Shown piece after piece: positions 21,258 through 32,173 of a DNA stretch of 64,000 nt (position 1 is the stretch's first letter; every line of letters begins with the position of its first letter). The DNA comes from Escherichia coli (GTDB lineage: Bacteria; Pseudomonadota; Gammaproteobacteria; Enterobacterales; Enterobacteriaceae): assembly GCF_024700885.2 (NCBI RefSeq), contig NZ_CP117014.1; one strand, 5' to 3'. The notes beneath the pieces were generated by a model. The model had not been told where the DNA came from. It searched no databases and saw only the letters and a program-made list of their open reading frames with translations. Both the position numbers and the translations under genes were made by a program.

Positions 21258-22087
21258 TCGATCACTCCGTTTTGAGTCGTATCAAAATTTCTGGCAGGTA
21301 TGCAGTAGTAAAGCGAACCAACATGTTGTGTGCCGTAGCTAAAAATACGGTGCACGTACCACCAGCGGCGGGCTACGCCGTTTACCATCTCTTCATTCCA
21401 TTCAAGAATTGATCCGACGGGGACGTTATTTGCTGCAATACGCAGAATCAGAACATCATCGGTTAAGCCATCCTGCTCACCGTCTGCGTCAATCGCATGG
21501 AAAGAGTCACGCCCGTCAGGGTTATCCAGCACATAAACGATTTCAGGTTCCTGGTAAGTCAGTTCGCGTTGGTTGTTATCCAGTTCAGTGAATGACTCTT
21601 CTCCTGTTTCGTCGCTGACTACCCCATATGTGCCAACATCTGGTCGATATAAGAGAGCCTGAAACGCGTCTGGGCTGGATTCAATAATCAGCATCCAGTC
21701 TGCGCGGATTTGGTCGTTAAAGGCTTTATGCCCGTTATAGCGTGCTTTTAGCTGTGGCGTCGGTTCTCTGCCAGCCAAGGAAGGTGGAAGTATGGCTATA
21801 TCTGATTCGCCAGCGTCCGGAGTAAGGCCACCGTTGCTATCAGCAAAATTATCATGGCTATCAGCTTCGGCGGTGGATTGCTCTTCCAGAATGCTGAATG
21901 AATCCGGTCCGGCATTGCCATGTTCCGGCGCGCTTCCTGCATCCGCTTCAACCGTCGCTGGCGTTTCTCTCTGCGTGCTGTCATGTTCTGACTCCTTACT
22001 TGCCAGGTTTGCATCGTCAGCAAACCATTCGTCAAAACGGCCCATAAGCATCCTCAAAGGTCGATTTATCAGGTATCGAGGGTGCAT
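21254..22087 (-). CDS. hypothetical virion protein with acidic N-terminal half
   Basis: 277-aa ORF and first gene of this minus-strand operon. Confidence 0.35.
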   Translation of the reverse strand: MHPRYLINRPLRMLMGRFDEWFADDANLASKESEHDSTQRETPATVEADAGSAPEHGNAGPDSFSILEEQSTAEADSHDNFADSNGGLTPDAGESDIAILPPSLAGREPTPQLKARYNGHKAFNDQIRADWMLIIESSPDAFQALLYRPDVGTYGVVSDETGEESFTELDNNQRELTYQEPEIVYVLDNPDGRDSFHAIDADGEQDGLTDDVLILRIAANNVPVGSILEWNEEMVNGVARRWWYVHRIFSYGTQHVGSLYYCIPARNFDTTQNGVIE

Positions 22088-22190
22088 TGTCTGGAGATTG
22101 TGATTTCAATTCATATCCCAGCATGGGACTAAAGTGCTTTACATTGTCCCATATTGGAACTACTATACTTTCAGTGAGAAGGAATCTGTG

Positions 22191-22493
22191 ATGAAAATAA
22201 TTTCGGTAAAAACACTAAGGGATTTTTGGGCGAAGAATCCCGATGCAGAACAGCCTTTAAAGGCATGGGTTGATGAAGCAACAAAGGCTGACTGGAAAAA
22301 TCCGGCTGAGATCAAAGAACAGTACCGGACAGCCAGCATCCTTAAAAACAGGCGCGTGGTGTTCAATATTAAGGGAAATGATTACAGGTTAATTGTCGCA
22401 ATTGCTTATCAGCGAGGATGGATGTTCGTTAAGTTTATTGGAACACACAAGGAATACGATGCCATTGACGCGGATACAATAGAACTGGAGTAA
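22191..22493 (+). CDS. higB: HigB-family type II toxin (ribosome-dependent mRNA interferase)
   Basis: MKIISVKTLRDFWAKNPDAEQPLKAWVDEA..ASILKNRRVVFNIKGNDYRLIV..FIGTHKEYD matches the HigB_toxin family pattern. The ATG at 22191 has a gagaagga RBS. Confidence 0.8.
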   Translation: MKIISVKTLRDFWAKNPDAEQPLKAWVDEATKADWKNPAEIKEQYRTASILKNRRVVFNIKGNDYRLIVAIAYQRGWMFVKFIGTHKEYDAIDADTIELE

Positions 22494-22496
22494 ATC

Positions 22497-22856
22497 ATGA
22501 ACATTAAACCTATCCGTACAGAACAAGATTATGAGGCCGCACTGCGTGCGGTCGAACCGATGTTCGATAACGAACCGGAAATGAACACCCCGGAAGGTGA
22601 TTTCTTTGAGGTCATGTGTCTTCTCATTGAGGAGTACGAGAAAAAACATTACCCAATTGAGCCACCATCACCTATTGAAGCCATTAAATTCCGCATGGAA
22701 CAGCAAGGGCTGACCGTGAAGGATCTGGAACCGGCAATTGGTAAGTCAAACCGTGTTTACGAAGTGCTTAATGGGACACGAAATTTGACGTTACCTATGA
22801 TTCGTCGTTTACATGCCCAGTTTGGTATTCCACTGGAAAGTCTGGTTGGTGTTTAA
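22497..22856 (+). CDS. higA: HigA-family antitoxin (HTH)
   Basis: Lies 3 nt after higB. The C-terminal Xre-type HTH reads LTVKDLEPAIGKSNRVYEVLNGTRNLTLPMIRRLHAQFGIP. Confidence 0.8.
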   Translation: MNIKPIRTEQDYEAALRAVEPMFDNEPEMNTPEGDFFEVMCLLIEEYEKKHYPIEPPSPIEAIKFRMEQQGLTVKDLEPAIGKSNRVYEVLNGTRNLTLPMIRRLHAQFGIPLESLVGV

Positions 22857-22916
22857 GTTTTGCGGTCTGGATGACCGCTTTTACATAAAATCAATGTTTA
22901 AATATTTGGTAATTAT

Positions 22917-23648
22917 ATGAGCGCTGATTCATCAATAGAAAAGGAAAACCCCTCTACCAAAAATCTGTTAGAAGACGCTGTAAAAGATAAGTTGTTTAAT
23001 AAGGTTTTTGCCTATATTTTTATTTCATTTTTAATTTCTAACTGGCAAGAAATATTGATTTTGTTTAAATCAAAATATGATATATACACAACACTATCTA
23101 TAGTATGGATTGGTGACAAATATCAAGTCCCTTATTTGGGAACCTTCATTGTACCTCCGTTTTTAGCTCACTTTGTTATGCCGTTTATATATGGCACTGT
23201 TGCGTCCATAGTAATGCCTTATATTACTATGCGTATATCAAAACTAACTGGTAGAAATTATGCGCAAATAAGACATATTGACCGTGAATTTGACTCAAAA
23301 GAGCAAGCAAGATTAGATGAGTTACAGAAAGAAATAGAACAAAAAAAAGATGAGCGTTTAAGTCTAGAAAAGAAAATAGAAGATCAACGTAAATCATTGG
23401 CTAAAATTGAAGGTGAAAAGAAAGAAGTTGAGGACGCTAGAATATCCCTGTTTTATGGGATAAAGGCAATAGTTGATATATATGAAACCAAAGGCGAAAG
23501 CATTTCCACCCAAGAGGATTTTGCTGATTTACTAAAGGCAGTCGAACAAACTGATTTTTATAAAGATACAGGTTTATACGGTATTAATAAATTGGTAGAT
23601 GATGTAAAAAGAATATACGAACATCAATCTATCTTAAATGATAAGTAA
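22917..23648 (+). CDS. membrane protein with C-terminal coiled coil (unknown function)
   Basis: 243 aa in visibly AT-rich DNA. Hydrophobic helices (FAYIFISFLISNW, LGTFIVPPFLAHFVMPFIYGTVASIVMPYI) are followed by a K/E-rich coiled coil. Confidence 0.5.
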   Translation: MSADSSIEKENPSTKNLLEDAVKDKLFNKVFAYIFISFLISNWQEILILFKSKYDIYTTLSIVWIGDKYQVPYLGTFIVPPFLAHFVMPFIYGTVASIVMPYITMRISKLTGRNYAQIRHIDREFDSKEQARLDELQKEIEQKKDERLSLEKKIEDQRKSLAKIEGEKKEVEDARISLFYGIKAIVDIYETKGESISTQEDFADLLKAVEQTDFYKDTGLYGINKLVDDVKRIYEHQSILNDK

Positions 23649-23678
23649 TAACATAGGCGGGATAACCGCCTATGTTAT
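23648..23678. terminator. hairpin between convergent genes (no U-tract)
   Basis: ATAACATAGGCGG-gataa-CCGCCTATGTTAT, a 13-bp stem. Confidence 0.4.
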
Positions 23679-23681
23679 CAA

Positions 23682-24878
23682 TCAAGAACCTTTCTTCACA
23701 TACTCCATGAACATTTTTTCAGCCTGCTCAGGTGACGTTCCTGCCATGACAAGCGCATCAATGAACGCCTGCTTCTTCAGTGCGAACTGATCGGCAAGGC
23801 GTTGCTGAAGCTCCTTGTTTTTCTGTTTCTCACGTTGCAAGGCCGCTTCTTTTGCTGCCGCCCGTTTTTTCTGTGCGTCTGACAACTTTCTGGCTTTGGT
23901 CAATTGGTCACGTAGCTTGTCAATTTTGCCGTTGTCCTTTGCCAGTTTTGTGCTTAAAGCGGCCTGGCGCTTCTGATAGAGCCTCCATTCGCGCTTGGCA
24001 GCGTCAACGTTTGTTTTACTGTTGCGATTGCGATTAAACTCCCTCTCGTCTTCTTTTGAGAAGTGTTTGGTTGTACGGCGGCGATCGTCACCAAATGCAA
24101 TTTGCGTTGCGGCCTTTTGTAACGCACGAGCAATACTCATTTGCCAACTGGCGGACTGTAACCGCGTCATTGAGTGGATCACGTGTTTACAGGCGACGCC
24201 TTGTAGCTTAGGGTTACGAACTTTTGGATAGGCGTATTCTTTTGGCGGGGCCAGGGCAAAGTTACCTGCAGTAGCGATGTAACGATACCAGTATTGATGA
24301 CGACCACAGTCACAATCGAAAGACACCCGCCCAGCGCACAGTGATTTAGTGATTTTCAGAGCTGATTTATCGTCTTCTGCGATGTCATCGACCATCTGAT
24401 CCCATTCTTCAAAGCGTATCCGGACGATATGGTGCTGGTGGACGGATATATCCGATGCTTCTACGCGGATATTAATCACGTTGTGGCGAAGAGATACGGG
24501 TGTAGCTCTTTTGATACCAGATCCGTCATCCACGGCGTTATTTGCACGCTTAATATCGATTGCCTGGCTGGATGCCACCAGCTGGGCGTATGTGATGCCA
24601 GCCGTCTTGCTGTCATATTTTTCGCGTGTTTTACTCCGTAGCTTTTCGAAACCTTTCAGGTCGTCTCGCGTGAAGAACGTGCCGCCTTTTTTCTTCCCTA
24701 ACTTGAGAATATCTTCGGCGGATTTGTTCCTCAGTCTACCTGGCGTCAGCGTCCGGTGAGCTTGTCGGCGCTTACGGGTTTGTTCTTTCCTGATAAGGTC
24801 GAATAAACGCGTGAAGTCCTTAGAGGACAGGCCGTCAGTGATATAGCGCCCGTCCTGGTTTTTCAGGAAATCAGGCAT
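23682..24878 (-). CDS. SWIM zinc-finger protein with basic coiled C-terminal region
   Basis: 398 aa with a CxC...CxH pattern (FDCDCGRHQYW...GVACKHVIH). Confidence 0.45.
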   Translation of the reverse strand: MPDFLKNQDGRYITDGLSSKDFTRLFDLIRKEQTRKRRQAHRTLTPGRLRNKSAEDILKLGKKKGGTFFTRDDLKGFEKLRSKTREKYDSKTAGITYAQLVASSQAIDIKRANNAVDDGSGIKRATPVSLRHNVINIRVEASDISVHQHHIVRIRFEEWDQMVDDIAEDDKSALKITKSLCAGRVSFDCDCGRHQYWYRYIATAGNFALAPPKEYAYPKVRNPKLQGVACKHVIHSMTRLQSASWQMSIARALQKAATQIAFGDDRRRTTKHFSKEDEREFNRNRNSKTNVDAAKREWRLYQKRQAALSTKLAKDNGKIDKLRDQLTKARKLSDAQKKRAAAKEAALQREKQKNKELQQRLADQFALKKQAFIDALVMAGTSPEQAEKMFMEYVKKGS

Positions 24879-26430: not shown

Positions 26431-27054
26431 ATGAAGGATGGTGTAGTGAAGTTAAGGGTTTTAGGGGCCGCGCTCGCGGCTATGTTGGGATGCGTATCTG
26501 CTAATACTGCCAATGCAACTGCGTTACCTGCACAATTCAGGGCAGGGCAGCAGGTTATGAATAATGCTGGTGGGGATCATTCACAAGCGGCCATTATGGA
26601 CTTTTGCAAGAGGGAGGGCATTCCATTACGGCCTGTTGGAACTCAGTTTATTGGTAAAACTGACTTTTGCGTTTTTGCATATACAGCATATCTGACGGAC
26701 AAAGCTATAACAAAAACAGGTTATTCAACCAAAGATACTCTTTCCAGATTAAGTCAGGGATGGCAGCAATTCGAAGTGTATCGCCAGCAAGGATTAGGTG
26801 AGTTATTGCAACCACTTTTTATGCTTGCGTTGGTGCCCGAGGGGCAGCAATTTTTGGTTAAAAAGGGAATGCTTCGCCAAAGTGATATTGCCGGGTTCGA
26901 TAGCATGATGGCTTATGAGCGCAAACTAACCGAGCAGCGAAATAAAAAACCATCTGCTTCATGTGTGCAAAGTAAAACAGCAGAATACAGTGCAGTAGCC
27001 GGGCCTTTAGCCAAACAAATGGCAGAGCAATGGTGTAAAAAATACGGGCAATAA
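26431..27054 (+). CDS. predicted secreted protein
   Basis: N-terminal signal-like segment (LRVLGAALAAMLGCVSANTANA). Confidence 0.4.
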   Translation: MKDGVVKLRVLGAALAAMLGCVSANTANATALPAQFRAGQQVMNNAGGDHSQAAIMDFCKREGIPLRPVGTQFIGKTDFCVFAYTAYLTDKAITKTGYSTKDTLSRLSQGWQQFEVYRQQGLGELLQPLFMLALVPEGQQFLVKKGMLRQSDIAGFDSMMAYERKLTEQRNKKPSASCVQSKTAEYSAVAGPLAKQMAEQWCKKYGQ

Positions 27055-27074
27055 GTTACGCAGCGGAGGCAGAA

Positions 27075-27467
27075 TTGAAAAGATTGACAATTGCTTTACT
27101 GGCGTCTTTCCCTTTGATCGCGAGCGCCGGAAATTTACAAGTTAAGTGCGGTCGGTTTGATATAAAAATCTATCCAGATGCCATATTTCTGAATGGGAAT
27201 AAGGTTGATAACGTACACCGAAAAACTGAATCTGACGTAATGAGCTATGTGTTCCAGGAGTATGCGGAGATGGGGGGAACTTACACGCTGTACTCGCTGG
27301 ATGTTCCTTCTCGCGGTGATATGACATTATCCCATCAATGGCAGAACGCCGATGGCGAAGCTCTGCGCGAAGTTAAAACAGAAAAATGTGGCACTTTCCA
27401 TTCTTTTAAAGGGAAAGTGCCAAATGTTAAATCTGTGCTTGAAAAACAGCGCGCAGGTGATTTTTAA
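27075..27467 (+). CDS. predicted secreted protein
   Basis: Signal peptide MKRLTIALLASFPLIASA. A hairpin plus T-run terminator follows (GCGACAAC..GTTGTCGC, then tgtatgttttt). Confidence 0.4.
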   Translation: MKRLTIALLASFPLIASAGNLQVKCGRFDIKIYPDAIFLNGNKVDNVHRKTESDVMSYVFQEYAEMGGTYTLYSLDVPSRGDMTLSHQWQNADGEALREVKTEKCGTFHSFKGKVPNVKSVLEKQRAGDF

Positions 27468-27555
27468 ACTGTGTTAGCACTTTGAACATGGCGACAACAC
27501 ATCTTGGTGGCTGCGTTGTCGCTGTATGTTTTTATAATATAAAGCATTAAAGTTT

Positions 27556-28173
27556 TCATTTTTGTCGGATCTTTTCCAGCATATTTAATTCATTATCACT
27601 TTCTGCTGCTGAGACGGTTGGCCTCACATTTCCGAAATATTTCCTGTGAGACTCATGACTTATGTATTCACCGACAGTTTCATTCTTGAATATACGAATT
27701 TGACATATGCGAGATCCAACAATAAGTTCTACAGGGCTATTCCCATGATTAAATAACTCTAAAGATATACAGCCTCTGTACCCTGGTTGTATCATGGTAT
27801 TTAATGAAAGACCAAGCCTTGTATAGCTGCTTCTGGACAATACATCAGCGTAGCAATCTGGTGGCAAACAAACATATTCTAATGTTGTTGCCAGTACCAC
27901 TTGATTCGGGTAAACAATGAACCTATCCCCAAGATCTCTCCTTGTTTCCTGGAAAAATGTTCTGATTGGTTGATGAGTATCATTGTTTTTTGAGGGAATT
28001 AACTCTATTGACGGCTTCCTTGTCATAATAGACACTAAAAAATCGTAACCAAGTCTAAGGTCTATGGTGAAGTTTCCAATTTGGTTTTTATTTAGAAGAG
28101 GTTCAATGAACAACGACTCAGGTTCTTCTGATTCATAATATTGCAGCAATTCAGCTTTGCTTAGGAGATTCAT
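27556..28173 (-). CDS. Dcd-type dCTP deaminase homolog (dUTPase fold)
   Basis: Aligns by eye to E. coli Dcd across four blocks: IDLRLG; VLATTLEYVCLP; SRSSYTRLGL; IQPGYRGCISLELFN (catalytic Glu retained, IDPG changed to IQPG). The ATGA start/stop overlaps the upstream gene. Confidence 0.75.
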   Translation of the reverse strand: MNLLSKAELLQYYESEEPESLFIEPLLNKNQIGNFTIDLRLGYDFLVSIMTRKPSIELIPSKNNDTHQPIRTFFQETRRDLGDRFIVYPNQVVLATTLEYVCLPPDCYADVLSRSSYTRLGLSLNTMIQPGYRGCISLELFNHGNSPVELIVGSRICQIRIFKNETVGEYISHESHRKYFGNVRPTVSAAESDNELNMLEKIRQK

Positions 28174-29243
28174 TGTGCACTCCATTTTTCAAGAATCATT
28201 ACGTTTCGAATCGATTTTTCAACCAAATCATTTATAGTTTTTTCTATGGCTTCTTTTGACAACCCAGACCATATACCCGTAGGTTTTTCCCATTCAGAGC
28301 ATAAGTACTGCCAGCTGCTGTTAATAAAAGCATGCATTTCATTGTGGTCGCGAATAACAAAAGGACGCACATTATCAAAAGCTGATTTCACATCAAGCAA
28401 AGGTGTCGGCAATGTCAAACAAGGAGAAATAATCTGCCCACCCTTATGTAAGGCTGATATCACAGCATTGAACATGCCAACAACTGGATTTTCCACTTTG
28501 TTCAAAAAGTCGCTTACAATTTTAACTCTATCTTCTGTGGATGGGTGAGTATAGCTTGCAGGATGAGAGCCAGCTAATTTGTATAAGAAATCTACCCCAC
28601 TTTTTCCAATAAATTGGGCACTAAATAGATCTGCAAAATATTCTCTGCAATGATTTATCCAAATAACATCAGGTAGATTACTCCATTCTGGTCCTGGAAG
28701 TGTGCCTTTGTCCTTGGAACGATAGTTAAGACAGGCAAGCTCAGAAATACCTTTGCTAATATCAACGAAATGTCCCAATTCGTGATATAAAGGTATAGAG
28801 CATAATGGTCGTCTTCTGTACATTTCAGGTAATGAAATCTGAATTAATTCGACCTCGAATTTGACATTTAAAACTTCATCAAATAAAGAATACAAATTCT
28901 TGTTTACAGACTTAAAATAAAACCCATGCATATCTGGAGATAGGGCTGTGGTTATAAGTGTTTTTTCACTTATCCATTTTTTACAGGCATCATTTAAGCA
29001 ATAAACAATCTCGTAGGGAATTTTCTTTGTAGTACTGCCAGTGAAAAAATTAACTGCATCGGTGATAAAAAAAGTACAATCCGCAATTATTTTATCAGCA
29101 ACATTCACATGGTTTTCATAGAGCTTATCTACCGCTTCTTGTAGAACAGCAAGATATTCATGCATGTCTTTAGAAAAATAGGGAGATTCTGATATCTCCC
29201 TTAGCTTATTTCGAACTAATGTAAGTTGTGTAAATGCAAGCAT
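28170..29243 (-). CDS. soluble M48-like zinc metalloprotease homolog
   Basis: 357 aa with three signatures: YHELGH (HExxH), REYFAD (ExxAD) and THPSTEDRV (THPxxxxR). No TM helix or signal peptide seen. Confidence 0.65.
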   Translation of the reverse strand: MLAFTQLTLVRNKLREISESPYFSKDMHEYLAVLQEAVDKLYENHVNVADKIIADCTFFITDAVNFFTGSTTKKIPYEIVYCLNDACKKWISEKTLITTALSPDMHGFYFKSVNKNLYSLFDEVLNVKFEVELIQISLPEMYRRRPLCSIPLYHELGHFVDISKGISELACLNYRSKDKGTLPGPEWSNLPDVIWINHCREYFADLFSAQFIGKSGVDFLYKLAGSHPASYTHPSTEDRVKIVSDFLNKVENPVVGMFNAVISALHKGGQIISPCLTLPTPLLDVKSAFDNVRPFVIRDHNEMHAFINSSWQYLCSEWEKPTGIWSGLSKEAIEKTINDLVEKSIRNVMILEKWSAQ

Positions 29244-29548
29244 TAAATGTACTCTAATACATTCCGGGCCATTACGGGTTCTAACATATCTTCGCTAGTT
29301 ACTTTGGTTAGCACCTGGGCGAGCGCCTTAGTGTGGCGTATCTCTACCGCGAGCGAGATGGACTCTCTGTGAGAAGGAATCTGTAATTGATCACCTTTAT
29401 CTACACTTAAGTTTGAGGCTTCTCTGATCACCTCATAAACCCGTAACTTTAACTGCTGTGACACTTCTTGTTGAGATGCTATAAGCTGAAGTACAGTCTT
29501 GATTAACTTCAAAGAATCAGAAGCTTGCTGAGGAACCGCATAGAGCAT
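29243..29548 (-). CDS. small helical protein, first gene of the cassette
   Basis: 101 aa. RBS aaggagggg. Its stop overlaps the next start (TAATG). Confidence 0.5.
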   Translation of the reverse strand: MLYAVPQQASDSLKLIKTVLQLIASQQEVSQQLKLRVYEVIREASNLSVDKGDQLQIPSHRESISLAVEIRHTKALAQVLTKVTSEDMLEPVMARNVLEYI

Positions 29549-29630
29549 AACCCCTCCTTTTCCCTTATCTATAACCGCTTTCTTTTTTCTGTGGATGTTA
29601 AAAGTAGAAGCGGTTTTTACCTTTTATAAT

Positions 29631-29667
29631 ATATATAGTGTCTAAAACTAATTTTGGCACTATATAT
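29631..29667. promoter_or_regulatory. 10-bp inverted repeat in the cassette promoter region
   Basis: ATATATAGTG-N17-CACTATATAT, 83 nt upstream of the cassette start codon. Confidence 0.35.
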
Positions 29668-29684
29668 GGCATGATATCTATGTT

Positions 29685-29730
29685 TTAAAGACACAAAAGC
29701 TCTGTTAAAACAGAGCTTTTGTGTCTTTAA
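29685..29730. repeat. perfect 46-bp palindrome
   Basis: TTAAAGACACAAAAGCTCTGTT-aa-AACAGAGCTTTTGTGTCTTTAA, lying between the 95-aa gene and the cassette. Confidence 0.6.
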
Positions 29731-29874
29731 CTTGATCATTTTCTCGCTGAAGTGTATGTCAGGCTTAGCTCATAATCAAGTTGCTTCCAAGCTAAAAATG
29801 AGCTATTTCACTGAAACACCAAGAGCGGGATGTTTCATTTATTTGCGTTGGGCCTGACGGTGTGCAGGTGAGTT

Positions 29875-30162
29875 TTAGCTCATCACACTATAACGACGGG
29901 GAACGGAATTCTCCATCAGGTCACGAATTACTCCCGCCTCATGTAGTTCCTCTGTTTCCCAGTATCTGTTTGTCACCAGATCGAGGCTGGCTATGACCTT
30001 GTGCCGGTCATTAGGCATAGCCAATTTTTCTGCTATAACCATCAGTGAAAACTCTTCATCCAGTAGGATTTGATACCAGACTTTTGACAGCTCCAACTCT
30101 CTAATGAGGGTGAAGCGCCGCTCAAGTGTGGCGGCAGAATAAGTGAAATCTATTTTTTTCAT
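29875..30162 (-). CDS. hypothetical protein
   Basis: 95-aa ORF downstream of the antirepressor-like gene. Confidence 0.4.
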   Translation of the reverse strand: MKKIDFTYSAATLERRFTLIRELELSKVWYQILLDEEFSLMVIAEKLAMPNDRHKVIASLDLVTNRYWETEELHEAGVIRDLMENSVPRRYSVMS

Positions 30163-31384: not shown

Positions 31385-31500
31385 AGTTAAGGAGCTACCG
31401 CGTGAGGTTCCAATCTCAATGGCGGTAGCACTGACTGGGTTGGAACTACCGGCGTCAAAGGGAACCGGCCTGCCTTTCGGCAGCCCAGCCAGCACTACCA
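31385..31500 (-). ncRNA. candidate c4-like antisense/leader RNA of an immI-type operon
   Basis: Structured leader. An 8-bp stem, GCTACCGC (31394-31401) / GCGGTAGC (31422-31429), presents GGTTCCAAT in its loop. The complementary GTTGGAAC lies at 31439-31446, and a second GGTTCCAAT copy at 31594-31602. Confidence 0.25.
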
Positions 31501-31548
31501 TTGATCTCTGAGCTAAACGCTACGTATGGCTGTGCGATGGCATGACAC

Positions 31549-31569
31549 AAAAAAGACGCTTTCGGCGTC
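31549..31569 (-). terminator. rho-independent terminator (minus strand)
   Basis: On the minus strand: GACGC-cgaaa-GCGTC followed by TTTTTT. Confidence 0.6.
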
Positions 31570-31674
31570 TGTGTCGCCTTTGACATTATCCGGGGTTCCA
31601 ATCCCGGCACCCGTTTTTCTAAGGTGCCGTAGAAATATACCCCACGATAATGCTAGGGCGCAACAGTCAGTATT

Positions 31675-31842: not shown

Positions 31843-32173
31843 TTTGACACCCCCGACGCGAGTAAAGAATGCAGATTATCGCGTGAGTGGTGGACGACGA
31901 GTGATGGGAAAAGACTGTAGTTGTTCATAGTGTAGTGACTCCTTGCTTTCGGAGCCGCCATCGACTGTTCCACGGTCTGGTGGCGGCGCAATAAAGGCTG
32001 GAACACCGTGAGTCAACGGGGGCTTTTCAGCCACCTATATTGCACCGCCATAGGTATGACGGCGGCAATAATACGAAAAACTAAACAGTTTGTCTCAAAA
32101 AGTTGACCGGTGTGCCAATCGGTAGTGAATGTACATCGGAGAAATTTACAATTCAACTTAAAATGTTAGAAAA

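Follow-up and report, generated by a model that had tools for sequence, protein, structure and literature searches.

What is a three-gene cassette that couples a putative deoxycytidine triphosphate (dCTP) deaminase to a zinc protease and a small helical protein doing on a phage-plasmid of Escherichia coli? The cassette lies in a 64,000-nucleotide stretch of contig NZ_CP117014.1 (hereafter the window), which comes from a P1-like phage-plasmid, and is inserted just downstream of the immI (c4-icd-ant) operon. Its three genes occupy the minus strand. Gene A (29243–29548) encodes a predicted all-helical protein of 101 amino acids with a conserved N-terminal MLAAxP and a central PEAIxLA motif, gene B (28170–29243) a predicted soluble zinc metallopeptidase of 357 amino acids, and gene C (27556–28173) a Dcd-family dCTP deaminase of 205 amino acids, or 209 if an alternative upstream ATG at 28185 is used. 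The start of C at ATG 28173 has a GGAG Shine-Dalgarno sequence 6 nucleotides upstream and is also the RefSeq start. As the first-pass annotation of this DNA had described, the three open reading frames (ORFs) are joined by overlapping codons: at the A/B junction (TAATG) base 29243 is common to the stop codon of A and the start codon of B, and at the B/C junction (ATGA, 28173–28170) the ATG of C overlaps the TGA of B. The AT-richness reported at the same time is equally clear, with a GC content of 0.369 in the cassette against 0.476 in the remaining window and a GC content at third codon positions of 0.29–0.44. The evidence presented here indicates that the trio is real, strongly conserved and apparently undescribed, and makes it a good candidate for nucleotide-depletion immunity.

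The gene order recurs far outside the window. A genome-wide scan with an alignment of B recovered 67 loci from many phyla. In 62 of 66 loci the gene directly downstream of B was a C homologue in the same orientation, which either overlapped B or abutted it, and an iterated profile placed an A homologue directly upstream of B in 49–50 of the 66. A small A-like ORF was present 5′ of B in nearly all B-derived loci, including those from Bacteroidota, and two loci that were found from C homologues, not via B, contained the same trio. The taxa involved are Alpha-, Beta- and Gammaproteobacteria, Desulfobacterota, Nitrospirota, Leptospirales and Bacteroidota, and the recurrence of one gene order in taxa this distant is far beyond chance. 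The B family itself is rare, with 517 representatives among 1.84 billion proteins. The first-pass annotation had proposed conservation of the neighbourhood and location in defence islands as tests of the cassette; the former is borne out by these loci, and the latter by the defence systems found among the neighbours, which are described below.

We next considered each protein in turn, beginning with C. Judged by its profile matches, C is a genuine Dcd-family protein. It scored 113.3 bits against TIGR02274 (cutoff 92.8) and 107 bits against PF22769 (threshold 27, E-value 1.3e-30), matched solved Dcds with E-values of 1e-14 to 1e-16, including those of E. coli (1XS1) and B. halodurans (4XJC), and contained only Dcd and dUTPase-type Pfam domains. 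These scores uphold the initial assignment of C, which had been made by aligning it block by block to E. coli Dcd, with the catalytic Glu kept and Asp128 replaced by Gln. The catalytic set in the window protein is R118, S119, S120, R123 and E143. Among 60 cassette-linked C homologues, E143, K182 and Y183 were present in all 60 and S119 and R123 in 58 each, so that the equivalents of R110, S111, S112, R115, E138, K178 and Y179 of E. coli Dcd were invariant or nearly so. The catalytic residues of C are under selection. Like the housekeeping Dcds of E. coli and B. halodurans, C thus has the equivalents of Glu138, Ser111 and Arg115 and the C-terminal KY motif of the family. Unlike them, it has a Gln in place of Asp128 of the IDPG motif (E. 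coli numbering), which is Gln133 in the window protein; this position is occupied by Gln in 58 of the 60 homologues and by His in the other 2. It also differs from E. coli Dcd by a shorter loop before IxPG and by a conserved tail (RKYxGxVRPxVSxADxDxEL) that is about 12 residues longer, and from housekeeping Dcds in general by Arg and Gln residues that are invariant and specific to its clade (R82, R83, Q95, Q162, R181 and R188). The Asp128-to-Gln replacement marks what, by these residues, is a distinct clade. Moreover, C is an accessory protein that is encoded on islands and coupled to its partners A and B. The Asp that dUTPases have at this position is their catalytic base for hydrolysis. As this base is lost in C, we argue that C would be monofunctional and would release deoxyuridine triphosphate (dUTP) without hydrolysing it further.

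The second protein, B, is predicted to begin with a three-helix bundle, followed by an M48-like catalytic core and, at the C-terminus, by a helical domain in which the motif NDLxEKSIRN is invariant. Its catalytic motifs are H154-E-L-G-H158, E201 and D205 in REYFAD, and H233-P234 and R239 in THPSTEDR; H154, E155, H158, E201, D205, H233, P234 and R239 were all invariant in 28 diverse B homologues (~35% identical), so that this catalytic set, like that of C, is under selection. B had first been labelled an M48-like protease on these three motifs, and the label holds in part. The motifs are present and invariant, but the Pfam M48 model (PF01435) scored only 16.1 bits, below its gathering threshold of 20.3, and covered residues 198–243 only. 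Profile searches found no relative of B in the PDB and Foldseek found no global structural match, with the AlphaFold2 model of B reaching a predicted local distance difference test score (pLDDT) of 91 and a predicted template modelling score of 0.91; the best of the long structural matches were to ZMPSTE24, Ste24p and BepA. The initial observation that B has no transmembrane segment stands, since its highest Kyte-Doolittle mean over 19 residues is 1.16. Neither Pfam nor PADLOC v2 gave an M78 or capP match for B. In comparison with the M48 proteases (Ste24/ZMPSTE24, HtpX and BepA) and M56 BlaR1, B thus shares the HExxH motif, the downstream Glu in a REYxAD-type motif and HPxxxxR, and differs in being soluble, in its sub-threshold Pfam score, in its lack of a global fold match and in its own N- and C-terminal helical domains. 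Membrane anchoring or a periplasmic location is typical of M48 but does not strictly define it. We therefore describe B as a putative soluble gluzincin whose core is M48-like and whose flanking domains are novel, and for which membership of M48 is partial.

The third protein, A, had no relatives in Pfam, NCBIfam, PADLOC or the PDB, where profile searches returned noise only, and no helix-turn-helix (HTH), ribbon-helix-helix or other DNA-binding signature was found in Pfam, NCBIfam and PDB profile searches. The AlphaFold2 model of A contains five helices at a pLDDT of 55, which is too poor for a fold search. By these measures A is a new, fast-evolving family that is predicted to be all-helical. 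The Bacteroidota loci contain an ORF of ~100 amino acids at the position of A that aligned over its full length to the A profile in hhalign (E-value 7e-5), and which is a probable remote homologue of A.

How might these three proteins work together? Our preferred reading, to which we give even chances, takes the cassette for an autonomous conflict module of three components that moves horizontally. It would most likely be an anti-phage defence by which infection is aborted or arrested, with C as the effector and A and B as its control. The first-pass annotation had proposed a control of this kind in outline, in which the deaminase would be restrained or activated by its two partners. A, B and C would be made in coupled amounts and would probably form one complex, within which A, small and fast-evolving, would keep C silent. 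B would be the switch that cleaves A (or the tail of C) once infection or another insult is sensed. C, as a trimeric-fold dCTP deaminase, would convert dCTP to dUTP when unleashed, so that replication would be starved of dCTP and the pool loaded with deoxyuridine nucleotides. Three things lead us to favour gating of this post-translational kind, inside a complex: the genes are translationally coupled, their rates of evolution form a gradient, and a natural fusion of B and C exists. Median identity to the window proteins was 28% for A, 34% for B and 54.5% for C, a gradient in keeping with an effector that is conserved and with control or sensor parts that evolve fast. The fusion protein (P0334, 631 amino acids) contains a complete B-type protease module (residues 12–397) followed by a complete Dcd domain (425–586) and, if it is a real Rosetta-stone protein, suggests that B and C are physically coupled.

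The strict conservation of both active sites also allows the roles of B and C to be exchanged. B would then be a toxic, Lit-like protease that cuts an essential host or phage protein, C would sense or convert an altered (d)CTP pool, for instance the modified cytosine nucleotides of phages, and A would be an adaptor or inhibitor. Zinc proteases can be abortive-infection effectors, as exemplified by Lit of e14, the active site of B is conserved as strictly as that of C, and the Asp128-to-Gln replacement and the clade-specific residues of C could mean a changed ligand. We nevertheless hold this exchange of roles to be improbable, as C keeps all deaminase catalytic residues, which points to turnover rather than mere binding, and is the slowest-evolving part of the trio, as is usual for effectors.

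The favoured reading, with C as the effector, has precedents. Deamination of deoxycytidine nucleotides defends against phage, as described for the enzyme of Tal et al. 2022 in a review (PMC13276650), and AvcID, a type III toxin–antitoxin (TA) system in which the deaminase toxin AvcD is held off by the labile RNA antitoxin AvcI, also acts in phage defence (PMC10511110). AvcID and the Tal enzyme are the only dCTP-deaminase defences known to have been described. Both resemble the trio in their output, the conversion of deoxycytidine to deoxyuridine nucleotides, and in a toxic enzyme that is restrained until infection, two features that are predicted for the trio, as well as in their location in defence islands or on mobile elements. 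They are unlike in their effectors: C is predicted to have the trimeric Dcd fold of the dUTPase superfamily (PF22769/TIGR02274) and not a zinc-deaminase fold. In the Tal and AvcD enzymes, a zinc cytidine/deoxycytidine monophosphate deaminase domain is reportedly preceded by a kinase or P-loop domain at the N-terminus. Control differs as well, since in the trio it would be exerted by two proteins, one of them a zinc protease, rather than by an RNA antitoxin. The enterobacterial copies of the trio do have a structured leader, but it is without an Rfam match and is not conserved in distant loci.

This leader deserves attention, as it bears on how the cassette may be regulated. Consensus scanning identified a putative sigma-70 promoter on the minus strand (29735–29762), with a −35 element CTGACA (29762–29757), a spacer of 16 nucleotides and a −10 element AATGAT (29740–29735). 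Such scans are weak evidence alone, and the actual support for the cassette promoter is conservation: in the copies from Proteus, Dickeya and Pantoea, the −35 element corresponds to TTGACA, which does not vary among them. At about position +1 of the transcript lies a perfect palindrome of 22+22 nucleotides (46 bp, 29685–29730), a possible 5′ stem-loop or operator, which also occurs in Dickeya, Pantoea and IMG/VR contig L087. In Proteus, each arm has about six substitutions that are compensated in the other, and the palindrome is still perfect. The second inverted repeat of the leader, ATAT[A/G]TAGT...ACTA[T/C]ATAT (29631–29667), has a compensated change from A-U to G-C in Dickeya and Pantoea, and a third stem-loop, ACCGCTTCT...AGAAAGCGGT (29574–29614), lies just upstream of the Shine-Dalgarno sequence GGAGGGG (29557–29551), all on the minus strand. 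The fold of the whole leader RNA had a z-score of −7.1, and a consensus fold contained six compensated pairs, from four sequences only. The Aeromonas leader contained only a repeat resembling the second one, no perfect inverted repeat of at least 10 nucleotides was found upstream of distant homologues, and Rfam had no match for the cassette leader. The stem-loops could be an RNA element, as the RNA antitoxin of AvcID is, or a set of operators, and the leader as a whole looks like a lineage-specific regulatory element, acting as a 5′ hairpin or an operator.

Taken over the whole leader of ~190 nucleotides (29549–29770, minus strand), the three stem-loops and their compensated changes were seen in the enterobacterial copies, the loci considered besides the window being L069, L073, L002, L087 and L075. 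The long palindrome and the second repeat have the word AGACAC/GTGTCT in common. The palindrome had been noted from the outset as a boundary of the island. It is real and perfect, but it is no boundary: it sits just after the cassette's own promoter, belongs to the cassette leader and travels with the cassette into the chromosomes of Proteus, Dickeya and Pantoea. Nor is it a universal element of the trio, being confined to the enterobacterial lineage.

An operator at the promoter would suit a transcriptional switch, in which A is the autorepressor of the operon, B an anti-repressor protease, as in ImmR/ImmA, BlaI/BlaR1 and CapH/CapP, and C is induced after A is cleaved, with the same effector and outcome. 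Zinc proteases of the M48/M56 and M78 types are established repressor-cleaving switches (BlaR1 and ImmA), and CapP-like proteases are common beside defence operons, including in islands that contain the trio. Together with the perfect palindrome at the promoter and the second inverted repeat, both kept by compensated changes in the enterobacterial leader, this makes the switch worth considering. We judge it unlikely all the same, as A has no DNA-binding signature in the Pfam, NCBIfam and PDB profiles, the distant loci lack such repeats, long, perfect and compensated palindromes suit an RNA or DNA hairpin at least equally well, and the tight translational coupling and the B–C fusion favour a protein complex. 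The resemblance of the trio to ImmR/ImmA of ICEBs1, CapH/CapP of CBASS and the HTH-M78 antitoxin of RosmerTA lies in the combination of a small protein and an HExxH protease beside an effector on mobile or defence islands; ImmR, ImmA and Int, for example, form a single operon. Unlike in those systems, B is not an M78 or ImmA/IrrE protease and A has no detectable HTH, and true CapP- and RmrA-like genes are separate neighbours of the trio.

To which kind of element does the cassette belong? Megablast and tblastn found nothing in 50,697 deposited phage genomes, none of which contains B, and B was present in only 3 of 2.9 million viral contigs. Matches of the trio in PHROGs were confined to near-identical families of 'unknown function'. 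The module is mainly an element of chromosomal islands, and the description 'prophage-encoded' in the first-pass annotation therefore undersells it. On the phage-plasmids themselves it is sporadic, being present in 11 of 476 flank-matching P1-like plasmids (~2%) and in 7 of 5,426 complete E. coli genomes. A segment of pKY1497_2, a circular plasmid of 93 kb, is 100% identical to the cassette, and all cassette-matching plasmid records are non-mobilizable and from E. coli or Salmonella, nearly all of them ~90–110 kb long and one 169 kb. In sibling plasmids of the same replicon cluster, the slot is empty or occupied by other small genes. Together with the low GC content and with the integrases, AlpA or transposases that adjoin the trio elsewhere, this marks the module as accessory and mobile.

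This distribution bears on whether C is simply an extra Dcd that raises the supply of deoxyuridine monophosphate and deoxythymidine triphosphate for the phage-plasmid or its host, next to functionally unrelated neighbours. C does pass the NCBI equivalog threshold for dCTP deaminase, and every database names it so. Yet the near absence of the trio from phages argues that C is not a phage metabolic gene, the linkage of C to B and A holds across phyla, C occurs sporadically and on islands, and it belongs to a distinct Asp128-to-Gln clade. Enterobacterial hosts, moreover, already have a housekeeping dcd. Ordinary nucleotide metabolism is thus the explanation that we find hardest to credit.

On chromosomes, the trio is found in islands together with defence systems. 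In Proteus it lies in an integrase/AlpA island with QatABCD, in Dickeya in an integrase/AlpA island with an HTH-M78 pair (RmrA-like), in Rhizobium phaseoli beside an integrase and a pair resembling type I restriction-modification (RM), and in Rhizobium leguminosarum in an integrase/resolvase island. A Y1 transposase is its neighbour in Geobacter, and in Methylophilus it is surrounded by a Bub-type ubiquitin-like operon, a CapP-like M78 protease, an AAA_15/21 ATPase, a restriction enzyme and RHS toxins. One metagenomic contig contains SoFic, a kinase and an AHH nuclease beside the trio, and other metagenomic loci contain TA clusters or type II RM. Among the 140 ORFs nearest to the trio in ~38 loci, a scan identified ThiF (11), Prok-JAB (8), Prok-E2_E (7) and Multi_ubiq (7) of the ubiquitin-like set, as well as capP/M78 (4), RES (3), RmrA (2), BrxL, PglZ (BREX), PrrC, AbiE, defence reverse transcriptases and type I methyltransferase; this tally of defence neighbours is descriptive, has no background control and includes several loci from related Rhizobiales.

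These contexts also raise the possibility of a pure addiction or stabilisation module, a three-component TA system in which C would be a bacteriostatic toxin, A its antitoxin and B an accessory protease, and which would stabilise plasmids and genomic islands. The layout resembles that of a TA system, in that a conserved enzyme is encoded downstream of a small gene that evolves fast, and the genes are coupled. The trio is carried by a low-copy phage-plasmid and by integrative islands and can be surrounded by TA clusters, and AvcD, itself a deaminase, formally counts as a TA toxin (PMC10511110). Measured against what is expected of TA systems, the coupling and the rate gradient fit, while the operator-like palindrome is found in one lineage only. 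Against pure addiction, P1-like plasmids already have addiction systems and only ~2% carry the cassette, the neighbours of the trio are mostly defence systems and not TAs alone, and a self-encoded protease is atypical for TA. Since many TA systems are defence systems, there is also a large overlap with the defence module that we favour. We therefore regard a role in addiction alone as quite unlikely.

A number of points weigh against the favoured defence module. The functional role of the trio is inferred from gene order, catalytic sites and context, and the link to defence is guilt by association, resting on a descriptive tally. The contexts in Aeromonas and Bradyrhizobium include no obvious mobile or defence neighbours. 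PADLOC v2 matched none of A, B and C (for C, at E ≤ 0.01), a silence that fits novelty and a role outside defence equally well. The fusion protein P0334 is a singleton from Logan assemblies, on two contigs of at most 4.3 kb, and may be an artefact of assembly, frameshift or read-through. The role of A as the inhibitor is a guess, given that its model is poor and that no fold can be recognised in it. Finally, the Asp128-to-Gln replacement and the shortened loop before IxPG could alter the substrate or activity of C, which makes the conversion of dCTP to dUTP uncertain.

The first-pass annotation had not recognised this architecture among named systems, and the searches made since agree with it. 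Besides the silence of PADLOC v2, the non-subscription literature yielded no paper on a defence that combines a metalloprotease, or any peptidase, with a dCTP deaminase, nor any that cites the RefSeq accessions of the trio. The 'dUTPase' candidate of DefensePredictor proved to be a different system (MazG-C kinase, dUTPase and aGPT-Pplase), and the accessions were not found in those parts of the DefensePredictor supplements that were available. The trio thus apparently matches no described system. In its most specific form, which we put forward tentatively and at somewhat less than even chances, our proposal is that the trio represents a new defence family. Its trimeric-fold Dcd effector would have evolved independently of the zinc-deaminase AvcD and Tal enzymes and would be gated post-translationally by an M48-like protease and a small helical protein. 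The Asp128-to-Gln replacement would lock its output to dUTP, leading to dCTP starvation and uracil poisoning of phage DNA, and its three genes would move together, across phyla, from phage-plasmids to chromosomal defence islands and back.

If this is true, immunity based on the nucleotide pool has arisen convergently, a second, unrelated fold having been recruited to deaminate dCTP against phages, and a protease-gated control logic has been added that is unlike the RNA-antitoxin control of AvcID. A and B, the partner proteins, are new families, and for one of them the predicted fold is confident yet without a match. In genomes, hundreds of entries named 'dCTP deaminase' are members of the accessory clade of C and not part of housekeeping metabolism, and are thus misannotated. 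As the cassette is small (2.4 kb) and comes from an E. coli phage-plasmid, it can be tested directly in E. coli.

Several further features of the trio's loci were recorded. The Bub-type ubiquitin-like operon (Multi_ubiq, Prok-E2_E, ThiF and Prok-JAB) is the commonest immediate neighbour of the trio; it was found in Rhizobiales (L032, L035, L037, L039 and L042–L044), Methylophilus (L082) and Geobacter (L081), and thus in at least three proteobacterial classes. It may be shared island cargo or reflect a functional pairing. We rejected it as an obligatory component, as it is absent from most contexts, including the window. In three Bacteroidota loci (L047, L050 and L052), a protein of ~300 amino acids that starts with MVD..DIERISYDILKSS is encoded ~1 kb from the trio, and in L052 its gene adjoins an XRE-type HTH gene; the two may form an ImmA/IrrE-like pair. 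In L029, L064 and L083, A and B are present and C is replaced, truncated or broken. These loci may be decayed copies or A–B pairs with another partner.

The surroundings of the cassette in the window are themselves variable. Dam, RdgC, Ref, Icd and Ant/Rha are encoded in its neighbourhood. The slot is flanked by two convergent genes on the plus strand (26431–27467) with signal-peptide-like N-termini, encoding 207 and 130 amino acids, and by a gene for 95 amino acids after ant (29875–30162, minus strand). In sibling P1-like plasmids (L077–L079), the gene for 207 amino acids is replaced by different genes and the content of the slot differs, which suggests that the whole stretch from 26.4 to 30.2 kb is a variable region. 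Between the cassette and the convergent genes lies a hairpin (27500–27540; stem 27505–27524) that is followed by a T-run on the plus strand. It had been put down as a terminator bounding the island; the hairpin is real, and its T-run fits the terminator of the convergent plus-strand gene at 27075–27467, although it may also end the cassette transcript.

On the other side of the cassette, at 31418–31640 and 31976–32055 on the minus strand, Rfam identified the C4 antisense RNA of P1 immI (31418–31505, 77 bits), an isrK-like element and a second C4-like match. The latter scored 40 bits, below the gathering score, lies ~500 nucleotides upstream and may be a diverged or duplicated copy of c4. Finally, the window contains a second AT-rich patch at ~21900–23700 (L001 6434–8152), where the GC content falls to 0.31–0.33 at 22800–23600. 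It contains a hypothetical gene for 243 amino acids, which has a truncated HTH gene and a RelE/ParE-HigA toxin–antitoxin pair as neighbours, and it has the appearance of a further accessory cargo slot of the phage-plasmid.

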